NCBI GenBank assembly: GCA_038842485.1
Contig: JAWBSP010000017.1
Location: forward strand, 1-26,658
Length of the DNA stretch: 26,658 bases
DNA from: Candidatus Hadarchaeales archaeon
GTDB lineage: Archaea > Hadarchaeota > Hadarchaeia > Hadarchaeales > JAWBSP01
Direction of reading: 5' to 3'
Shown here piece after piece: positions 5,554 to 13,787 of this stretch. Positions within the stretch are counted from its first letter, which is position 1. Every line of letters begins with the position of its first letter. The notes under the pieces were generated by a model. That model did not search any database. It was not told where the DNA came from and saw only the letters and a program-made list of their open reading frames with translations. Position numbers and translations under genes: made by a program.

Positions 5554-7953
5554 ATGCTCGGCGGTTACCTCGGAAGGCTTCTGGAGTTCGATCTTACCTC
5601 GGGTGAGGGAAGAACTCTCGAGTTGAGCAAGTCCCTAGCGTACAATTACCTCGGCGGTCGGGGCGTGGGGATCAAGCTCCTCTACGACCGGCTGCCACCT
5701 CGCCTAGATCCCCTCTCCCCGGAAAACGAGCTGGTCTTCATGACCGGTCCCCTCGCCGGAAGCGGGTTCCCGGGATCGGCCAGAATATCGGTGTGTTCAA
5801 AGTCCCCGCTCACGGGCACCATCTTCCCGAGCTCCATGGGCGGCTCCTTTGGGGCTTTCCTGAAGGCCTCGGGTTTTGACGGGCTTGTGGTGAGGGGGAG
5901 GTCGAATAAGCCTGTCATTTTGGTGGTGGAGGACGGTGAGGCTCGGGTGGAGGATGCCACCGATCTATGGGGGAAATCGACTTCGGAAACGGAGGAGGAG
6001 CTAAGGTCGAGGTACCCGCACGCGGGGATAGCGGAGATCGGTCCCGCCGGCGAAAACCTCTCCCCCCTCGCCTGTATCAACTCGGAGGGCAGGGCGGCGG
6101 GAAGGGGCGGGCTGGGCTCGGTGGCTGGGTCCAAGAGGCTGAAGGCGGTGGTGGTTAGGGGGAGGCAGAGGGTGAGGATATCCCACGAGGAGGCCTTCAG
6201 GAGAATCTGCGAGCGAATCCGCAGAACCATAGAATCCCATCCCGTTTCGGGAAAGGACGGCTCGTTGGCGAGGTTCGGGACGGCCATGCTCGTTCACAGG
6301 ATCACCGCGGCGGGGATTCTGCCCGTGAGGGACTTTTCTGGTGAAAGGGTTGATTTCTCGGGCGTGGACGGTTTTTCCGGCGAGACGATAAGGGAAAGAT
6401 TTCTGGTGAAGAGGAGAGGCTGCTTCGCCTGCCCCACCTCCTGCGGAAGGGTGGTGAGATACGGGGGGCAAGAAGTCAAGGGGGCGGAGTACGAGAGCAT
6501 CGTCATGCTGGGGCCCAACTCGGACTTCTGGGATTATGAGCGCGAAATCCTCCCCCTCTCCCTTCTCTGCGACGAGCTGGGCATGGACACCATCTCGGCA
6601 GGGGTGCTTCTGGGGCGCGCGAGAAGAAAGGGGGAGGTCCGGAACTTGGAGGAGGCCCGAGAATTCCTGAAAAGACTGGCGGTGGGAAAGAGGGTGCCCG
6701 AGGAGCCAGCACTTCCCCAGGTTAAGGGTCTGGGTCTTCCCGCCTACGATCCGAGGGGTGTGTGGGGAATGGCCCTGGCCTATGCCACCTCCACGAGGGG
6801 GGCCTGCCACCTGCAGGCGTATCTCATCGGGCCGGAGATTTTGAGCATTCCAGAGTACGTGAACCCGGCAAGCAGGATAGGAAAGGCAAGACTGGTGAGG
6901 CGGATGCAGGATGCCTTTGCGGTGCTCGACAGCCTTGTGGTATGCAAGTACTACTTCCCGGCTCTCTTCACGAGTCTCGAGTTCGAGCTGGATGAACTGG
7001 CTACCCTGCTCACCGCCCTCACGGGCTGGAGATGGACGGGGGAGTATCTCCACGAGGTTGGTTCGAGGATCTTCGCCACCGAGAGGCTCTTCAACCTGCG
7101 GGAGGGTTTCGGGCCCGAGCAAGACCGTCTCCCAGAAAGATTTGGCATGGACCTCTCCTCCCTTCTTTCAGAGTACTACAGGGAGAGAGGATGGAGCGAG
7201 GAGGGGGTCCCGGCACCCATGCCTGAGCGCGAGCCGGTGGTGGCCGAAAGGGTCGAGTTACCGCTAAGCCCGCTTGAGAGGCTGAGCCCGCCGGAGTTGC
7301 AGGTGGCGCTGGATCTGGATGCGGATCTCCAGACAGTGGTTGAGATAGCCAGGGCAGCATACGAGGGTGGGGCGAGGGTCATCGAGGCCGGAACCCCCAA
7401 CATAAAGAGACACGGGGTGGAAAACCTCCTGCCGGCCCTCCGCTCCGCCTGTCCGGAGGCCGTGCTGGTGGCGGACATGAAGACCATGGATGTGGGGAAC
7501 TTGGAGGCAAGGATAGCCTTCAGGAAGGGCGCGGATGTGGTGGCTGTGATGGGAATTGGCGGAAAGACGAAGATTCTGGAGGCATTCGGCGAGGCGAGCA
7601 GGAGGGAAAAGGCGATCCTCATCGACCTTCTCGACTGTCCAGATCCCCTCTCCAAAATCGAGGAGCTGGTGGGGGAGTTCCGGGGAGGGGAGAAGACGGT
7701 GGCCTTCTGCCTCCACCGTGGGATAAGCGAGCAGCTGAAGGGGAGGGGAATATACGAGCAGACCCAGCTGATAAGGGAGGCAAAGAGGAGGGCGGGAAAG
7801 TTTCTCCTTTTTGTGGCGGGGGGGATAAAGGCGGGCGTGGCCAGAGAGGTGGTGAGGTCGGGGGCGGATGTCTGCATCGTTGGGAGCGCGATTTACAACT
7901 CGGCCGATCCTCGGGAGTCAGCCCGGAGGATTCTTGAGGAGATCAGGGGATGA
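5554..7953 (+). CDS. Aldehyde:ferredoxin oxidoreductase (W/Mo-bis-pterin) fused to a C-terminal 3-hexulose-6-phosphate synthase/KGPDC-family domain
   Basis: AOR: GGRG, KSPLTG, GRGGLG..GSKRLKA, CFACPTSC, EYES, DELGMDTIS, RGACHL, ERLFNLREG. From about 7290: LQVALD, IEAGTP, DMKTMD, LHRGI, VAGGI, IVGSAI. One open frame; the start is taken as ATG 5554, not 5329. Confidence 0.92.
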   Translation: MLGGYLGRLLEFDLTSGEGRTLELSKSLAYNYLGGRGVGIKLLYDRLPPRLDPLSPENELVFMTGPLAGSGFPGSARISVCSKSPLTGTIFPSSMGGSFGAFLKASGFDGLVVRGRSNKPVILVVEDGEARVEDATDLWGKSTSETEEELRSRYPHAGIAEIGPAGENLSPLACINSEGRAAGRGGLGSVAGSKRLKAVVVRGRQRVRISHEEAFRRICERIRRTIESHPVSGKDGSLARFGTAMLVHRITAAGILPVRDFSGERVDFSGVDGFSGETIRERFLVKRRGCFACPTSCGRVVRYGGQEVKGAEYESIVMLGPNSDFWDYEREILPLSLLCDELGMDTISAGVLLGRARRKGEVRNLEEAREFLKRLAVGKRVPEEPALPQVKGLGLPAYDPRGVWGMALAYATSTRGACHLQAYLIGPEILSIPEYVNPASRIGKARLVRRMQDAFAVLDSLVVCKYYFPALFTSLEFELDELATLLTALTGWRWTGEYLHEVGSRIFATERLFNLREGFGPEQDRLPERFGMDLSSLLSEYYRERGWSEEGVPAPMPEREPVVAERVELPLSPLERLSPPELQVALDLDADLQTVVEIARAAYEGGARVIEAGTPNIKRHGVENLLPALRSACPEAVLVADMKTMDVGNLEARIAFRKGADVVAVMGIGGKTKILEAFGEASRREKAILIDLLDCPDPLSKIEELVGEFRGGEKTVAFCLHRGISEQLKGRGIYEQTQLIREAKRRAGKFLLFVAGGIKAGVAREVVRSGADVCIVGSAIYNSADPRESARRILEEIRG

Positions 7954-8700
7954 GGAGAGTTCGGTGAGTCTCCTCACGATGAGGGAGAGGCAATCCGAGA
8001 GGTTTCTCCGGTTATCGAATCGTTCTACAATCCCCTCAAGTTCCCCCATTCTGTGCCGGAGGTCCCTGGCAAACCTCACCATGAGGGGAACGGCCCGAAC
8101 GATGTTGTCCACGATGGTGATGTCGGCCGATAGGGAGGTCCTGGAGAGCGGGTTGAGGTCGATGGCAACAACCTTCTTGCCGAGCTTTTTGAGGGCCTGA
8201 GTCCTGTCCCCATCCTCCAGGGGCACCAGCACCACATCGGCGGCGGCTATCCCCCTGCGGTCCACCCTCCTCCGATTGCTGTGAATCTCCTCGATGGTTG
8301 TCCAGTGCTCCGGATCCACCCCCAGGATGCTCTTCGCTCCATAGCTCCTGAGCAGGCTCGCGATCTTCCGCTCCCTCCGCCGCGAGGAATGAAAGAGATT
8401 GACCTCGAGAGCAGCGTTGCAGAGACTGGCAAGCCTCACGAGTTCTCGGCCCGCTAGGGCGGCAGCGTTACCGTTGATTGAGATGACCGGCTTTTTGGCG
8501 AGTAGGAGAAGGGCGGTTCCAGCCTCCGCCGCTTTTCTGGCAGGTTCGAGCGTTTTCTCCCCCAGTAGATAGTCAAAGGCCTCTCCCCTTCCGTGCGCCG
8601 CCAGTCCCTCGGGAACCACTATGCCCTCCTCGAAGGCTTCAGCGAGTTTCCTCCTTATCCTCAGGGACTCGGCCCGTGGGTGGGCTGGTGAAATCTCCAT
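7918..8700 (-). CDS. pps: 4-phosphopantoate--beta-alanine ligase (archaeal phosphopantothenate synthetase)
   Basis: HPRAESL, AHGRGEAFDYLLGE, SINGN, VPLEDGDR and IDLNPLSRT motifs. Confidence 0.93.
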   Translation of the reverse strand: MEISPAHPRAESLRIRRKLAEAFEEGIVVPEGLAAHGRGEAFDYLLGEKTLEPARKAAEAGTALLLLAKKPVISINGNAAALAGRELVRLASLCNAALEVNLFHSSRRRERKIASLLRSYGAKSILGVDPEHWTTIEEIHSNRRRVDRRGIAAADVVLVPLEDGDRTQALKKLGKKVVAIDLNPLSRTSLSADITIVDNIVRAVPLMVRFARDLRHRMGELEGIVERFDNRRNLSDCLSLIVRRLTELSSSPDLLKNPPG

Positions 8701-8773: not shown

Positions 8774-9679
8774 ATGACAGTTTCGGTGACGAGGCTGGTT
8801 CTCCTCCTTGCATTCGTTGGGTGTCTGATTGCCGCTGCGAGGGTGGAAGTTCCTGCACAGAGGGCGGTCGCTCTTGCCGCCGCTGTCGTCCTGCTGGCCA
8901 CTCTTTACCTCTACCAGCCCAAGCCACCCCCACTCCCCTCCCAGAGGCTCCCCGTTGAGGACTTCACCGTGTGGGTGGAGACGGGGGGCGCGCTTTCGAG
9001 GCTAGTCGGTTTGGATCCGCAGGAACTCAGGCAGGCGGCCCAGCTGGCGAGGGAGGATTTCCGGGACCTGTCTGCGAACCTGGAACTCTTGGCTTCGAGG
9101 TTGGGCATCTTGGCGGAGAGGGGACACGGGGAGGTCAGCGGTCTGAGGGAGCTGAGCCTCGAGGTGATGAGAAGGGTGGAGGTCCTGTCCAGGGAATTTC
9201 CTGAGTTTCCGGGAAGGGCGCTGGAAAAGAAGGACTTCCTCCTCTCCACCCTAGAGCATTCCTCCACCGACATGGGATATCTTTCAGAGAGACTTTCAGA
9301 ACTCTGCAGGGTCAAGCCACCCGATGTCTCAACCCTCCTCGCCCAGTTGCAGAGGCAGGCGGAAAAAATGAAGGAGAGCTTCCGGGTGGCCAAGTCCAAT
9401 CTAGCATCCCTCCTCGAGAGGGTCAAACCACCTGCTCCCCAACCCGTCCTGCTGGTTCCCCTGCCGGAGGTTCCGAAGCCAGCCCCTCCCCCCGAGGAGA
9501 AACCTGAGGAAAAGCCGTCTCAAGTGGTTGGGCAACCGCCCGAGGCTCCCCCAGAGGCAGCAAAAGCTGGGGAGCAAAAACCAGAGACTCCGTCCGAGGA
9601 AGCGAAGCCCACCTCTGGGGCAAAACCCGAGGAAAAAGAGTCCCAGCAAGCCCCAGCCGAGGTTGCCCTAGGCGGATGA
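8774..9679 (+). CDS. Hypothetical membrane-anchored helical/coiled-coil protein with a Pro/Glu/Lys/Ala-rich disordered tail
   Basis: Two N-terminal hydrophobic helices, a Leu/Glu/Arg-rich core and a low-complexity tail; GGAGG upstream; ATGA overlap with the next gene. Confidence 0.7.
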   Translation: MTVSVTRLVLLLAFVGCLIAAARVEVPAQRAVALAAAVVLLATLYLYQPKPPPLPSQRLPVEDFTVWVETGGALSRLVGLDPQELRQAAQLAREDFRDLSANLELLASRLGILAERGHGEVSGLRELSLEVMRRVEVLSREFPEFPGRALEKKDFLLSTLEHSSTDMGYLSERLSELCRVKPPDVSTLLAQLQRQAEKMKESFRVAKSNLASLLERVKPPAPQPVLLVPLPEVPKPAPPPEEKPEEKPSQVVGQPPEAPPEAAKAGEQKPETPSEEAKPTSGAKPEEKESQQAPAEVALGG

Positions 9680-10911
9680 AACCACACGTAAATCTGGTCT
9701 TCATTGGGCATGTGGATCACGGCAAATCGACCACCATTGGAAGACTCCTCTACGATCTCGGTCTCATAACCGACAAGGATCTTTCTCCGGAGGCGGGGAG
9801 CTCCAGGTTCGCCTGGGTGATGGACAGGGAGAGAGAGGAGAGGGAGAGGGGAGTGACGATCGGGATTGCCTACCAGAAGATAGAGACGGAAAAGAATCTC
9901 ATAACCATCATCGATGCTCCTGGGCACAGGGACTTCGTCAAAAATATGATAACGGGGGCCAGCCAGGCGGACGCGGGGGTTCTGGTGGTGGCGGCAGATG
10001 ACGGCATCATGCCCCAGACCCGGGAGCACGCCGCCCTGGCCTTCACGCTGGGGGTGAACCAGCTCGTGGTGGTGATAAACAAGATGGACCTGGTGGGGTA
10101 CGAGAAGAGTGTGTACGAAAGGCTGAAGGGGGAGGTGGCATCCCTGCTTGCTGGGATTGGGTACAAGGGTGCTGAGAACTTCCCCTTCATCCCCGTGGCA
10201 TCCTTCCACGGGGAGAATCTCGTCAAGCCCAGCCCGAAGATGACATGGTACAGCGGTCCTACCCTGCTTCAAGCCCTAGAGGCACTTCGGGAGCCGGAAA
10301 AACCGGTGGACAAGCCCCTCCGGATTCCCGTGCAGAACGTCTACTCCATCTCGGGTGTCGGGACGGTTCCGATTGGAAGGGTGGAGACCGGGGTGCTGGA
10401 GGTGGGGGATGTGGTGGTTTTCCAGCCCTCGGGGAAGAGCGGGGAGGTGAGGTCTATAGAGATGCATCACCAGCCCAGACCCAAGGCCCTCCCAGGGGAC
10501 AACATAGGTTTCAACGTGAGGGGCCTGACCAAAGCGGATATCTCCAGAGGGGACGTGGCTGGACACCCGGAGAACCCTCCGACCGTGGTCAGGGAGTTCC
10601 TGGCAAGGATAATAGTCCTGACCGTCCCTGGGGAAATCTCCCCCGGTTTCACCCCCAGCATTCATTGCCACACCGCCGATGCCCCCGGAACCATCTCCGA
10701 GCTGCTGAAGAAGATCGACCCCAAAAGTGGGGGTGTTCTGGAGGAGCGGCCGCAAAGCCTGAGGAAGGGGGAGGCAGGGGTGGTCAAAATCTCCCTTCTC
10801 AAACCTATGGTTCTGGAGAGAGTGGCGGAGTTTCCCCAGCTCGGGAGGTTCGCCATCAGACACGGCGGGCAGACCATCGGGGCGGGTATCTGCACGGAGA
10901 TTTTGAGCTAG
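9676..10911 (+). CDS. tuf: Translation elongation factor 1-alpha-like GTPase, probably a divergent paralog
   Basis: GHVDHGKS, RERGVTI, DAPGHRDF, NKMD, EMHH and GDNIGFNV motifs; shortened helix A*/A' region. Confidence 0.9.
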   Translation: MKPHVNLVFIGHVDHGKSTTIGRLLYDLGLITDKDLSPEAGSSRFAWVMDREREERERGVTIGIAYQKIETEKNLITIIDAPGHRDFVKNMITGASQADAGVLVVAADDGIMPQTREHAALAFTLGVNQLVVVINKMDLVGYEKSVYERLKGEVASLLAGIGYKGAENFPFIPVASFHGENLVKPSPKMTWYSGPTLLQALEALREPEKPVDKPLRIPVQNVYSISGVGTVPIGRVETGVLEVGDVVVFQPSGKSGEVRSIEMHHQPRPKALPGDNIGFNVRGLTKADISRGDVAGHPENPPTVVREFLARIIVLTVPGEISPGFTPSIHCHTADAPGTISELLKKIDPKSGGVLEERPQSLRKGEAGVVKISLLKPMVLERVAEFPQLGRFAIRHGGQTIGAGICTEILS

Positions 10912-10943
10912 AACTAGATTACTCGGGTGTCGGTAACTGTTGG

Positions 10944-13787
10944 ATGAGCTCTTTTGACTTATTGGCTCCCCCCATCAGAAGGCTGCTTGCCGAGAGGGGA
11001 TTTGATCAGCCCACCCTCCCGCAGGAGAGGGCGATTCCAGAAATACTGAAGGGAAAAAATGTTCTGCTCATAGCCCCGGCAGGTAGTGGCAAAACGGAAG
11101 CGGCTTTTCTCCCGGTTCTTCACCAGATGCTATACCTTCCGAGGGAGAGGGGGATCAAGCTCCTGTATATTACCCCGCTGAGGGCGCTGAACAGGGACAT
11201 GCTGGAGAGGCTGGAGTGGTGGTGCAAGTCCCTAGACTTCAGGATCTCGGTCAGACATGGGGACACGGAGGCGAGGGAGAGGAGGATCCAAGCGCTAGTG
11301 CCTCCCGACATAATGATAACCACTCCCGAGACCTTCCAAATCCTGCTGCTGGGCAGGAGGCTCAGCGAGTTCCTGAAACCCCTGCGGTGGGTGGTGGTGG
11401 ACGAGGTGCATGAGCTGGCGGAGAGCAAGAGGGGGGCCCAGCTTTCCCTCACGCTGGAGAGGCTGCGGGAGGTGGTGGGGAGGGAGCTGCAGCTTGTGGG
11501 GCTTTCTGCCACCATCGGTTCCCCCGAGGAAGTGGCTAGGTTTCTGGTGGGTGTCGGGAGACCTTGTGAGGTTCTGGATGTGAGCGTGGCCAAGCGCATG
11601 GAAATCGAGGTCGTCTATCCCCGGGTGAGGAAGGAGGATGTCCAGCTGGCGGAGAAACTCTACTCCTTCCCCGAGGTGGCGGCGAGGTTGAGGGCGATGA
11701 GGGAACTCATGGAGGGCCAGAGGTCGGTTCTCATCTTCACTAACACCAGACCCATGGCCGAGATCCTGTCGAGCAGGTTCAGGCTTTGGGATGTGGAGGC
11801 CCCACTGGCTGTTCACCACGGTTCGCTCTCGGGAGCGGTGAGGGTCAGGGCTGAGAAGGCTCTCAAGGCGGGGGAAATTCGGTACCTGATTTGCACCTCT
11901 TCCTTGGAGCTCGGGCTGGACATAGGCACGGTGGATCTGGTGATTCAGTACAACTCACCCAGACAGGTCACCAGGCTGGTGCAGAGGGTTGGAAGGGCGG
12001 GGCACAGGCTGACCGAGGTTTCGAGGGGGAGAATCGTGGCACTAGATCCCGAGGATGCCCTAGAGTCGATTGTTATAGCGGCGAAGGCGCGGAGGGGTGA
12101 GCTGGAACCCGTGAAGGTCCCTGAAAAACCCCTCGATGTTCTCCTGCACTCCCTCGTGGCCCTGCTTGGGGAGAGGAGGACGGTGAGCGTGGAGCAGGCA
12201 CTCAAAATCTTCAGGAGGGCTCATCCCTTCCGCAACCTTACCCGTGAAGACATACTCCGGGTGCTGGAATTCGCCCAGAGTCTGGAGCGGAGGCTGCTGA
12301 GGGTCTCGGATGGAGAATACTCCAGACCCCTGTCCTCCCAACGGACCTTCAACTACTATTACCAGAACCTTTCCATGATTCCGGAGCTCAAGCAGTACTT
12401 GGTGGTGGAGGATGAGACGAGCAACCCCGTCGGAATCTTGGACGAGTCTTTTGTGGCCGAGTACGGGGAGCCGGGAACCAAGTTCATCATGGCAGGCAGA
12501 CCATGGAGGATTCTCCAGATTTTCAGGGACAGGATTTACGTTAAGAAGGAGGAGGACCCGCTGGGATGCGTTCCCACCTGGATAGGTGAGGAAATACCCG
12601 TTCCCTTCTCGGTGGCACAGGAGGTGGGCAGAATCAGGTCTAGGGTGGAAAGGGAGGGGGCGGGGGTTCTGGATCATCTGGCCCAGGAGTACTCGGTTGC
12701 GAAGGAGGTGCTGGAGTCCTCTCTGGGGGAGGTGCTCAAGCAGGCGGAGGAGGGAATCCCGCTTCCCACTGAGAGCAGGATTACGGTCGAGCAGGTTGGT
12801 GAGTTCTGCGTGGTGGGGGCATGCTTCGGTTCCCTAGTCAACCGGACGCTCGCCAGACTGATGGCTCACCTCCTCTCCGAGCTCACGGGGGGAAGCGTTG
12901 CGATAACCACAGACCCCTACAAGATTGTCCTCCGCTCCGAACTTCTGAACCACCAGCAGGTTTTGGAAATCCTCAGGAACAGACCGCTGGAGGAGCTGAG
13001 ATCCGCGCTGAAGGAGGCGGTGGAGCGCAGCCACTTTTTCGCCTGGAGGCTCGTGCAGGTGGCTAAAAGGATGGGGGTGCTGGACAGGGAGGCGGAGATC
13101 ACCGCCCCGGTGGTGCAAAAGCTTCAGACCGCTCTCAGGGCAACCCCAGCCCACCAGGAGGCGTACAGGGAGGTGGTGGAGAAGGACTTGGATGTGGAGC
13201 AGACTTTCAGGGTTCTGGAGAAAATAAGGGAAGGGGAGGTGGAGGTTGTGGATCTCGGGAAGAGGAAGGAACCCACTCCCGTTGCCTCCCTCTTCTGGAA
13301 GCAGCCGGCCTTCTATCTGGAACCGGTCGCACCCAAGCGCATGAGGGCCCTCATCCTAGCCTCGGCTAGGGCCAGATTGGTGAGCGAGGTGAGGGTTCTC
13401 GCCTGTGTGGAGTGCCTCCAGTACGTCGAGGAGAAGAAAATGTACGAGCTGGATGAGAGGCCGAGCTGCCCGCTCTGCGGATCCAGGAGGCTGGGAATGG
13501 CTGACTCCACTGAGGAGGAGGTGAGGGAGGCGCTCGAACTGCGGAGGAAGGGGAGGTCGACCAAGCTATGGAGGGAGCTGCTGGGGAGTGCCAAGTTGCT
13601 CGAAAGGGGTGGGAAGCTTGCGGCGCTAGCGCTGGCTGGGAGGGGGGTGAGACCCGAGGCCGCGCAGCGTATTCTCTCGGCGGCGGGAGAGTTTGGCGAC
13701 AGGTTCATCGAGCTTGTGGTGGAGGAGGAGAGGAGGGCCCTCTTCAGGTCCTTTCTGAGCGGGCGGAGCTCCCTAAAGCCCGAGTAG
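10944..13787 (+). CDS. lhr: Lhr-family SF2 ATP-dependent helicase with a C-terminal Cys4 zinc motif
   Basis: APAGSGKT, TPLRALNRD, DEVH, SAT, HHGSL, SLELGLD, QRVGRAGH, CVEC/CPLC; start taken as ATG 10944. Confidence 0.93.
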   Translation: MSSFDLLAPPIRRLLAERGFDQPTLPQERAIPEILKGKNVLLIAPAGSGKTEAAFLPVLHQMLYLPRERGIKLLYITPLRALNRDMLERLEWWCKSLDFRISVRHGDTEARERRIQALVPPDIMITTPETFQILLLGRRLSEFLKPLRWVVVDEVHELAESKRGAQLSLTLERLREVVGRELQLVGLSATIGSPEEVARFLVGVGRPCEVLDVSVAKRMEIEVVYPRVRKEDVQLAEKLYSFPEVAARLRAMRELMEGQRSVLIFTNTRPMAEILSSRFRLWDVEAPLAVHHGSLSGAVRVRAEKALKAGEIRYLICTSSLELGLDIGTVDLVIQYNSPRQVTRLVQRVGRAGHRLTEVSRGRIVALDPEDALESIVIAAKARRGELEPVKVPEKPLDVLLHSLVALLGERRTVSVEQALKIFRRAHPFRNLTREDILRVLEFAQSLERRLLRVSDGEYSRPLSSQRTFNYYYQNLSMIPELKQYLVVEDETSNPVGILDESFVAEYGEPGTKFIMAGRPWRILQIFRDRIYVKKEEDPLGCVPTWIGEEIPVPFSVAQEVGRIRSRVEREGAGVLDHLAQEYSVAKEVLESSLGEVLKQAEEGIPLPTESRITVEQVGEFCVVGACFGSLVNRTLARLMAHLLSELTGGSVAITTDPYKIVLRSELLNHQQVLEILRNRPLEELRSALKEAVERSHFFAWRLVQVAKRMGVLDREAEITAPVVQKLQTALRATPAHQEAYREVVEKDLDVEQTFRVLEKIREGEVEVVDLGKRKEPTPVASLFWKQPAFYLEPVAPKRMRALILASARARLVSEVRVLACVECLQYVEEKKMYELDERPSCPLCGSRRLGMADSTEEEVREALELRRKGRSTKLWRELLGSAKLLERGGKLAALALAGRGVRPEAAQRILSAAGEFGDRFIELVVEEERRALFRSFLSGRSSLKPE

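Follow-up and report, generated by a model that had tools for sequence, protein, structure and literature searches.

The window, by which we mean the whole 26,658-nucleotide stretch of DNA that was analysed, contains at 5554-7953(+) a single stop-free frame that translates into 799 aa plus a stop and that joins an aldehyde:ferredoxin oxidoreductase (AOR) to a barrel resembling hexulose-6-phosphate synthase (HPS). This layout had been claimed in the original prediction and was confirmed by translation and by Pfam (AFOR_N, AFOR_C, OMPdecase); the motifs that had been named were also recovered, these being CxxCxxxC, the pterin-type DELGMDT and DSLVVC motifs of the AOR half, DMKTMD and LHRGI. The gene and its features, all on the + strand, are as follows:

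5554-7953 (+): AOR-HPS fusion gene, whole; 799 codons, stop codon at 7951-7953 (open reading frame and Pfam)
5572-6162 (+): AFOR_N domain, residues 7-203 (Pfam, 2.1e-74; a second search gave the same coordinates)
6196-7218 (+): AFOR_C, domains 2 and 3, residues ~215-555 (Pfam, 2.2e-83, in two stretches)
6421-6444 (+): CxxCxxxC, C290/C293/C297, the [4Fe-4S] motif by alignment to 1aor; invariant in 27 of 27 fusions
6487-6495 (+): E312-Y-E314; by alignment, E314 is the counterpart of P. furiosus AOR Glu313
6808-6810 (+): H419, by alignment the counterpart of P. furiosus AOR His448; the same in all 27 fusions
6943-6945 (+): C464, the fourth Cys by alignment to 1aor; invariant in 27 of 27 fusions
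7210-7290 (+): Pro/Glu-rich connector with an SPLERL motif, residues ~553-579; motif conserved within clade A (see below)
7291-7932 (+): HPS-like (OMPdecase-fold) barrel, residues 580-793 (Pfam OMPdecase, 2.5e-23)
7474-7491 (+): D641-x-K643-x-x-D646 catalytic motif (DMKTMD), from structure alignments; D641 and K643 invariant
7711-7725 (+): L720-H721-R-G-I724; catalytic His H721 invariant, with the aliphatic HPS-type residue three positions later

The frame extends without a stop as far as an upstream TTG (5329), but an alignment of 27 fusions places the start of the homologues at the ATG ('MLGGY'). The gene is monocistronic, lies divergent from a gene at 4566-5525(-) and overlaps at its 3' end a convergent phosphopantothenate synthetase gene (7918-8700(-)). 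The habitat is hot springs, and two of the sequencing runs, labelled as metatranscriptomic, carry the flag 'probably DNA'.

A frame of this kind could result from two neighbouring genes being joined by an assembly or sequencing error, and there are relatives in which the halves are indeed separated: the frame is split into 679 + 159 aa in one relative genome (G030), whilst in one Bathyarchaeia subclade an in-frame TAG lies between the halves. This TAG-split form was not recovered from a 301-genome sample of a second class, in which the frame of one genome (G119) ends at the contig end. Contigs from four other runs cover the gene of the window with substitutions only and neither indels nor a stop or frameshift, and the junction is crossed by contig pieces from three of these four runs, belonging to three other studies. 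Furthermore, the architecture is not unique to this assembly: AFOR plus OMPdecase was present as an open fusion in 107 of the best 120 database clusters (37-100% identity), in 16 of the 41 genomes of the same order and in 20 of the 301 genomes of the second class. The artefact reading, to which we assign virtually no probability, is refuted for 5554-7953.

The two halves and their connector

Judged from its sequence, the N-terminal half belongs to the aldehyde:ferredoxin oxidoreductase family and is predicted to carry a tungsto-/molybdopterin and a [4Fe-4S] cluster. Both Pfam matches lie above the gathering cut-off (AFOR_N 250 bits, cut-off 29.8; AFOR_C 281 bits, cut-off 27), and P. furiosus AOR (1aor) could be aligned over fusion residues 4-360 and 388-552, with all four Cys of the fusion falling on Cys positions of 1aor. 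The fold is shared with 1aor and with FOR (1b25; target-normalised TM-scores of 0.86 and 0.82), as are the Cys ligands and the Glu/His positions corresponding to Glu313 and His448 in the P. furiosus enzyme, which we take to be the active-site residues next to the metal. The half had been described as compact and this was borne out: at ~555 aa it is shortened in two places when compared to P. furiosus AOR, with ~31 residues fewer between 360 and 388 (1aor 358-417) and ~13 fewer near residue 530. The fusion differs from 1aor and 1b25 in an AOR part shorter by ~50 residues and in the added HPS barrel. Amongst the solved enzymes it scored 376 bits with 1aor, 372 with 9mqx, 354 with 9g7j and 266 with FOR 1b25, and its match to AOR (2.2e-111) is stronger than that to FOR (5.7e-78): AOR proper is the nearer relative, and the sequence gives no indication of specificity for formaldehyde.

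In sequence, the C-terminal domain lies nearer HPS than either KGPDC or OMPDC. The best solved relatives of this half are HPSs (9lj9 1.1e-30, 3ajx 3.1e-27 and further matches at 6e-22), whereas KGPDC structures match far more weakly (1e-4 to 1e-5), and comparison with 3ajx gave a TM-score of 0.93; we thus read the barrel as one of HPS type. D587, E611, D641, K643, D646, H721 and G756-G757 aligned to 9lj9, 3ajx and 3f4w and make up the HPS/KGPDC catalytic set (the QVALD Asp, the E-x-GTP Glu, D-x-K-x-x-D, the His and the GG phosphate loop), which is invariant in 27 fusions except for D646 (at least 90% of rows). In alignments to solved HPSs, residues D691, I724 and A755 are in HPS-like states; these are presumably the positions of the KGPDC E112D/R139V/T169A variant (a variant named in PDB titles). 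The HPS half is divergent in clade A: the score against TIGR03128 (RuMP_HxlA) was 136.4 bits, under the cut-off of 200, and clade-A relatives obtained similar values of 132-145 bits. Over 27 diverse fusions C290, C293, C297, C464, E312, E314, H419 and D345 are invariant on the AOR side and D587, E611, D641, K643, D691, H721, G756 and G757 on the HPS side, and both halves look catalytically intact on this alignment.

The stretch between the halves had been described as a Pro/Glu-rich linker. Its composition agrees with this, but the connector is predicted by AlphaFold2 to be ordered (pLDDT 80-90) and a SP[LI]ER[LI] motif is kept across the clade-A alignment, thus it is not obviously a floppy linker. 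No chain spanning both the AOR and the HPS part was found amongst solved structures. AlphaFold2 predicted the full chain with confidence (pLDDT 90.7, pTM 0.83). When folded as separate chains, the halves reached a score of 0.38 against 0.00 for the best control, which is a weak pass: of 157 solved complexes 116 attain the pass mark, as do 2 of 215 mismatches, and scores of up to 0.60 include only 18 of the passing solved complexes but both of the passing mismatches. The two-chain runs agreed in at least 97% of contacts, with a partner pLDDT of at least 89. These two-chain models hint that channelling between the two halves may take place.

Distribution of the fusion and its relatives

The source names of the fused clusters comprise Hadarchaeota, Bathyarchaeia, Nezhaarchaeota, Hodarchaeota, Thermoplasmata and Thermoprotei. 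In the AOR tree the fusions form two clades (A and B, support 100 each) and four label changes are required, one of which is P0289, an AOR-ferredoxin fusion and not an HPS fusion. The HPS domains of clades A and B fall in separate lineages of the HPS tree, clade A on a long stem (0.88), although a single clade of fused-type HPS domains, a group named post hoc, was not rejected by the AU test (p-AU 0.077). Clade-B HPS domains score 203-283 bits with TIGR03128, above its cut-off, and hence canonical HPS is also fused to the same AOR lineage. A scan of a genome collection with the fusion alignment returned 80 loci, mostly ordinary AOR since AOR-only patterns were used, with a full-length match only at L021. 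Standalone clade-A HPS genes of two genomes (G008 and G012) have no AOR gene adjoining them; G008 (95% complete) has the same HPS type with no AOR at 1e-30, so that the HPS-AOR partnership is not obligatory.

In the source genome (0.94 Mb) the fusion is the only HPS-like sequence, and a standalone PHI (202 bits, cut-off 160) is encoded by a separate gene on contig C1. Searches of this genome, which is 88.9% complete, did not find Fae, Mch, FTHFS, transketolase or 6PGD; FocA was not found in it, nor were RpiA and RpiB. As RpiA is common in relatives (both congeners, 36 of 41 genomes), incompleteness is the likely cause of the RpiA/RpiB gap. Co-occurrence counts overstate the support, as related genomes are non-independent. 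Within the order (41 genomes), PHI was present in 15 of the 16 fusion genomes as opposed to 0 of the 15 HPS-less genomes, whilst Transketolase_N was matched in all 15 HPS-less genomes as opposed to 7 of the 26 HPS-bearing ones; a match was obtained in four of the 16 fusion genomes (G002, G024, G017, G022). HPS plus PHI and transketolase are nearly complementary across the relatives, and replacement of transketolase by HPS plus PHI is the pattern expected for a reverse RuMP route.

These data bear on the possibility that the clade-A barrel is not an HPS at all, acting instead on another sugar phosphate and releasing another aldehyde or none, with the AOR oxidising an aldehyde other than formaldehyde. 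The TIGR03128 score below cut-off, the long clade-A stem and the position of the AOR half outside the FOR clade would all agree with such a barrel. We nevertheless think it improbable, given that the catalytic residues are retained, as are those presumed to set HPS-type specificity, that co-occurrence with PHI is strict, that there is no second HPS in these genomes and that the sister fused clade B carries a canonical HPS.

Most genomes that carry the fusion lack a Fae match. Within the order, Fae occurs in one of the 16 fusion genomes, and in G001 the fusion coexists with Fae-HPS; for the second class the figures are 3 of the 20 fusion genomes versus 177 of the 281 others. Together with the failure to find Fae and Mch in the source genome, this upholds the proposed independence from Fae/H4MPT.

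Proposed function

Many archaea run the RuMP pathway backwards to obtain pentoses, and one formaldehyde is released per pentose. We consider it probable that the fusion serves reverse RuMP pentose synthesis, with the fused AOR oxidising formaldehyde to formate, as a functional analogue of Fae-Hps. The separate PHI would convert fructose-6-P to D-arabino-3-hexulose-6-P, the C-terminal HPS barrel would cleave hexulose-6-P to ribulose-5-P and formaldehyde, and the N-terminal AOR domain would oxidise formaldehyde to formate, passing two electrons to ferredoxin. The very low formaldehyde level maintained in this way would drive the otherwise unfavourable cleavage and avoid toxicity, and the fusion would stand in for Fae-Hps in archaea without a Fae/H4MPT sink. 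Formaldehyde as the substrate, the direction, ferredoxin as the acceptor, the metal and direct channelling are all points that we infer.

The AOR and HPS reactions are both reversible in principle. Run the opposite way, the AOR would reduce formate with low-potential ferredoxin and the HPS would at once condense the formaldehyde with Ru5P, resulting in a formate-assimilating module whose fused form would pull the unfavourable reduction along; a fusion that holds the intermediate low would serve formate reduction equally well. The source genome contains an FdhA-like protein, at 111 bits far below the cut-off of 666, whose gene adjoins HydN-like, NuoC/D-like and sulfhydrogenase-like genes, and these could make or use formate. 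Against this, such a module requires Ru5P to be regenerated, yet neither transketolase nor 6PGD was found in the source genome and transketolase was likewise not found in 12 of the 16 fusion genomes, whilst the presence of HPS plus PHI in place of transketolase across the order points to a role in pentose supply: assimilation of formate appears unlikely to us. We are similarly sceptical of a bolder variant, a true channelling machine that is also reversible and takes formate, reduced at the pterin site, via protein-held formaldehyde to condensation with Ru5P, maybe arising from two independent fusions. If true, it would constitute a natural entry of formate into sugar phosphates, driven by very low-potential ferredoxin that the oxidation of CO or H2 supplies.

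The two halves could also work in parallel on external formaldehyde, one fixing and the other oxidising it, with no hand-over between them. Papers on archaeal MAGs (PMC8065059, PMC11291895) propose that RuMP enzymes and AFOR detoxify formaldehyde, and a hot-spring habitat would be in line with this. Detoxification would, however, leave unexplained the near-complementarity with transketolase, the presence of the fusion as sole HPS in small genomes with a requirement for pentoses, and the negative association with Fae, and we give it little credence.

Returning to pentose synthesis with oxidation of the released formaldehyde, we know of no settled fate for reverse-RuMP formaldehyde other than where Fae/H4MPT exists. 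In no fewer than six source-named archaeal groups, the fusion physically ties HPS and an AOR-family enzyme together; this link names a concrete ferredoxin-linked formaldehyde sink and therefore makes the question directly testable. To our knowledge a substrate has been established for few AOR-family members, and through the fusion a distinct AOR clade, shortened in sequence, would gain a physiological role. Public names of these proteins cover one half only ('aldehyde ferredoxin oxidoreductase C-terminal domain-containing protein', '3-hexulose-6-phosphate synthase' or 'orotidine 5'-phosphate decarboxylase / HUMPS family protein'), and for this reason metabolic reconstructions can miss the HPS or the AOR function. 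We found no description of an AOR-HPS fusion in the running text of the open full-text literature. The fusion is conserved and, apparently, undescribed.

Comparison with known systems

The AOR family is also fused elsewhere, to an Fe-alcohol dehydrogenase in P0279 (1026 aa) and to a ferredoxin in P0289. Both are uncharacterised database proteins whose partners differ from HPS: in P0279 the AOR is joined to the maker of its aldehyde and in P0289 to its electron acceptor. P0279 is another case of an aldehyde-producing enzyme joined to the AOR family, and was counted in favour of the proposed function.

The HPS-PHI fusion (NF041755, Thermococcales and others; solved as 9lj9) belongs to the same pathway and provides the strongest match to the HPS half amongst solved structures. 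It has no formaldehyde-consuming domain, whilst in the AOR-HPS genome PHI is separately encoded; the match of the AOR-HPS protein to NF041755 is limited to profile positions 4-211 of 391, leaving no C-terminal SIS/PHI domain.

The bifunctional Fae-Hps enzyme of methanogens and their relatives is reportedly the subject of work by Goenrich et al. in 2005, which PMC8407382 cites. Fae-Hps (NF009833) likewise combines an HPS barrel with a formaldehyde-removing enzyme for reverse-RuMP pentose synthesis, its HPS domains neighbour clade-A HPS in the tree (support 88, to be read with caution for long branches), and Fae-Hps and AOR-HPS are largely alternative across genomes. The AOR-HPS protein scored 140.6 bits against the Fae-Hps profile, under the cut-off of 274, and differs in having no Fae domain (PF08714), with none found in the genome. 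Unlike in Fae-Hps, the partner of the HPS barrel is an N-terminal pterin/[4Fe-4S] oxidoreductase of ~555 aa, and the sink for formaldehyde would be its irreversible oxidation to formate with reduction of ferredoxin, rather than the condensation with H4MPT that is used by Fae-Hps.

Domain architecture and integrity of the AOR-HPS fusion

The gene at window positions 5554-7953 (+) encodes 799 residues without an internal stop, in which an N-terminal aldehyde:ferredoxin oxidoreductase (AOR) half precedes a C-terminal hexulose-6-phosphate synthase (HPS) half, as reflected in the Pfam matches:

residues 7-203: AFOR_N (2.1e-74)
up to residue 555: AFOR_C (2.2e-83)
residues 580-793: OMPdecase (2.5e-23)

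The motifs named in the original prediction are present in the sequence (CxxCxxxC, 290-297; DMKTMD, 641-646; LHRGI, 720-724). HPS models head the NCBIfam ranking for the C-terminal part (Fae/Hps NF009833, 5.9e-41; TIGR03128, 9.7e-40), with KGPDC and OMPDC models at about 1e-12; the part remains under the cut-off of every HPS model. Against solved structures, the AOR half is closest to P. furiosus AOR (1aor, 2.2e-111), with the AORs 9mqx and 9g7j likewise similar and formaldehyde:ferredoxin oxidoreductase (FOR; 1b25) weaker at 5.7e-78. All four [4Fe-4S] cluster cysteines are present, and E314 and H419 align with Glu313 and His448 of 1aor, active-site residues next to the metal. Compared with P. 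furiosus AOR, the half lacks about 31 residues between positions 360 and 388 and about 13 more around position 530. The best solved relatives of the HPS half are HPSs (9lj9, 1.1e-30; 3ajx, 3.1e-27; 3f4w, 5.9e-22), whilst OMPDC reaches 5e-11 and KGPDC 1e-4 to 1e-5, and its predicted fold matches 3ajx with a TM-score of 0.93. Across 27 diverse fusions that were aligned, these catalytic and cofactor residues are invariant in both halves. AlphaFold2 modelled the whole chain with a mean pLDDT of 90.7 and a pTM of 0.83: the Pro/Glu-rich connector is ordered in the model (pLDDT 80-90) and poor prediction is limited to residues 382-390. Structure comparison found no solved chain spanning both halves.

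AFOR domains together with OMPdecase were found in 107 of the 120 best clusters for the whole protein (37-100% identity), the remaining 13 being unfused AORs, and both the Cys motif and DxKxxD are kept in all 108 fused sequences, the window's counted. Hot-spring metagenomes from seven studies contain the window stretch. A 14.3-kb contig of one run, perhaps sharing a sampling campaign with the window, covers the gene from end to end and differs from it by three substitutions; contig pieces from three further studies run across the junction (7177-7597) free of gaps, and no indels are reported anywhere in the metagenome contigs covering the gene. The fusion is thus not an artefact: it is not confined to this assembly, and other contigs show neither a stop nor a frameshift.

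The fusion gene is a stand-alone gene. On one side, genes for a xylose-isomerase-like TIM-barrel protein and a GH1 protein diverge from it; on the other, a convergent gene for phosphopantothenate synthetase overlaps it at the 3' end. The surroundings of the fusion are usual archaeal housekeeping genes (EF-Tu-like GTPase, Lhr helicase, L10e, Sua5). The element TATATAATA (5546-5553) lies immediately 5' of the fusion ATG; from the divergent gene, whose GTG start is at 5525, it is 21-28 nt away. As a TATA box, its position suits the divergent gene, which may be leaderless, better than the fusion. The Lhr-type helicase, mechanically called as a 1180-aa ORF (10245-13787(+)), overlaps the EF-Tu-like GTPase gene (9676-10911) by about 670 nt and its DEAD domain begins only at residue 259, so that its true start probably lies far downstream of 10245. 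Coenzyme-A pathway genes adjoin the HPS gene, whether fused or unfused, in three of the order's genomes:

window 7918-8700(-): phosphopantothenate synthetase
G012, locus L097:7544-8317(-): phosphopantothenate synthetase
G008, locus L098:4286-5152(-): ketopantoate hydroxymethyltransferase, a C1-using enzyme

This adjacency may reflect synteny alone or hint that the C1 unit has a further use.

Phylogeny and variants of the fusion

Among 1.84 billion representatives, the nearest relatives of the AOR half were three fused proteins and one unfused protein of 562 aa, followed by ordinary AORs at no more than 47% identity. In an AOR-domain tree of 261 rows, the 103 HPS fusions split into two clades, each with a support of 100: clade A, which includes the window protein, holds 64 fused rows and, nested among them as a group, 7 unfused rows, and clade B holds 39 rows, every one fused, with a full-length AOR and nearly no connector. 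With a support of 81, the smallest group containing both takes in 16 further AORs that are not fused. A tree of the HPS domains unites those of clade A on a long stem (support 98) adjoining the Fae-HPS domains and places the clade-B domains, which score above the TIGR03128 cut-off, among canonical HPSs. This sequence comparison suggests two separate fusion events; a single clade of fused-type HPS domains has a p value of 0.077 and is hence not rejected by the AU test.

Within a Bathyarchaeia-type subclade nested in clade A, three loci (L101:4001-6505, L102 and L103) carry AOR and HPS parts in one frame with a single TAG between them. The three contigs are nearly identical: on each, the AOR frame ends in '...RGWV', followed by TAG and by HPS in frame from the next codon, TTG; the unfused AORs of the subclade all (7/7) end at one alignment position ('RGW[VI]'). 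The arrangement could be a conserved split in which translation re-initiates, or else a stop codon that is read through or recoded. Further database proteins show other arrangements: P0094, P0095 and P0111 (about 990 aa) continue beyond the AOR part with two OMPdecase-type stretches, and the same sequence neighbourhood includes fusions of AOR with an Fe-alcohol dehydrogenase (P0279, 1026 aa) and with a 4Fe-4S ferredoxin domain (P0289, 853 aa).

Distribution and genomic context

Our comparison covered 41 genomes of the order, the window's counted, and a 301-genome sample of a second class, centred on one titled Candidatus Bathyarchaeia; co-occurrence counts are read as patterns without statistical tests, related genomes being non-independent. 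In the order, the intact fusion occurs in 16 genomes, a frameshifted one in G030 and only a fragment in G033, stand-alone HPS of the same type occurs in G008 and G012, and HPS is absent from 15 genomes. The G030 copy (contig C14, L099 2089-4577) is split into frames of 679 and 159 aa with the break inside the HPS part, through a frameshift or else a misassembly. 6-Phospho-3-hexuloisomerase (PHI) accompanies the fusion in 15/16 genomes, all but the 70%-complete G027, and is found in none of the 15 HPS-less ones. Transketolase_N, by contrast, was matched in 15/15 HPS-less genomes versus 7/26 HPS-bearing ones; only two of these seven (G002 and G024) have the same short-frame type as the HPS-less genomes, at about 1e-58, whilst the other five matches are weaker and in long frames, a type that may be a different thiamine enzyme, since it also stands beside a true transketolase in G040. 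Four fusion genomes with a Transketolase_N match are counter-examples. The pattern indicates that genomes missing the non-oxidative pathway make their pentoses through HPS plus PHI, and as a replacement for that pathway the route must run in the formaldehyde-releasing direction.

Fae was found in 6/41 order genomes, every time as a 406-442-aa Fae-HPS frame, with only G001, a counter-example, carrying the AOR fusion as well. In the second class, 20/301 genomes have a stop-free open frame with both parts, and Fae is present in 3 of these 20 versus 177 of the 281 others. AOR fusion and Fae-HPS are thereby indicated to be largely alternative solutions to formaldehyde. The AOR partner is dispensable for HPS, since G008 (95% complete) has a clade-A HPS and PHI and no AOR at 1e-30.

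In the window's own genome (943 kb, 27 contigs, 88.9% complete), the fusion is the single HPS-like sequence, accompanied by a stand-alone PHI (202 bits; cut-off 160) and two further AFOR_N genes. Fae, Mch, FTHFS, FocA, Transketolase_N, 6PGD, RpiA and RpiB were not found in this 88.9%-complete assembly; the missing RpiA is probably an assembly gap, because both congeners and 36/41 relatives have it. Contig C10 (16500-21500, L148) carries sulfhydrogenase beta-/gamma-like genes, a HydN-like 4Fe-4S protein, NuoC-/NuoD-like hydrogenase subunits and, at 111 bits (cut-off 666), a 522-aa FdhA-like molybdopterin protein.

Proposed reaction and relation to known fusions

The architecture, the intact catalytic residues of both halves and the genomic patterns are the observations beside which a mechanism can be set: the HPS half would cleave hexulose-6-P, the pterin site would oxidise the formaldehyde to formate and electrons would go to ferredoxin. 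A candidate consumer of this formate, judged by sequence, is the FdhA-like protein of C10, which with its HydN-, NuoC/D- and sulfhydrogenase-like neighbours may form a formate-hydrogen-lyase-like module. Folded as two chains in three runs, the halves scored 0.38 (0.38, 0.22 and 0.49; best control 0.00), a weak pass: the mark is met by 116/157 solved complexes and 2/215 mismatches, and passing scores of 0.60 or less comprise only 18 solved complexes plus both of those mismatches. The runs share at least 97% of contacts, with partner pLDDT of at least 89. This weak pass makes a defined interface between the halves plausible in the models; channelling between them is a distinct, putative property.

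No description of an AOR-HPS fusion was found in the full-text literature consulted, which lies mostly outside subscription journals, and the architecture is apparently undescribed so far. Within those texts, HPS-PHI and Fae-HPS fusions are described, as is AOR as a separate, proposed formaldehyde oxidiser; beside these, the AOR-HPS fusion is a real, widespread variation on the theme of an HPS combined with a formaldehyde sink.
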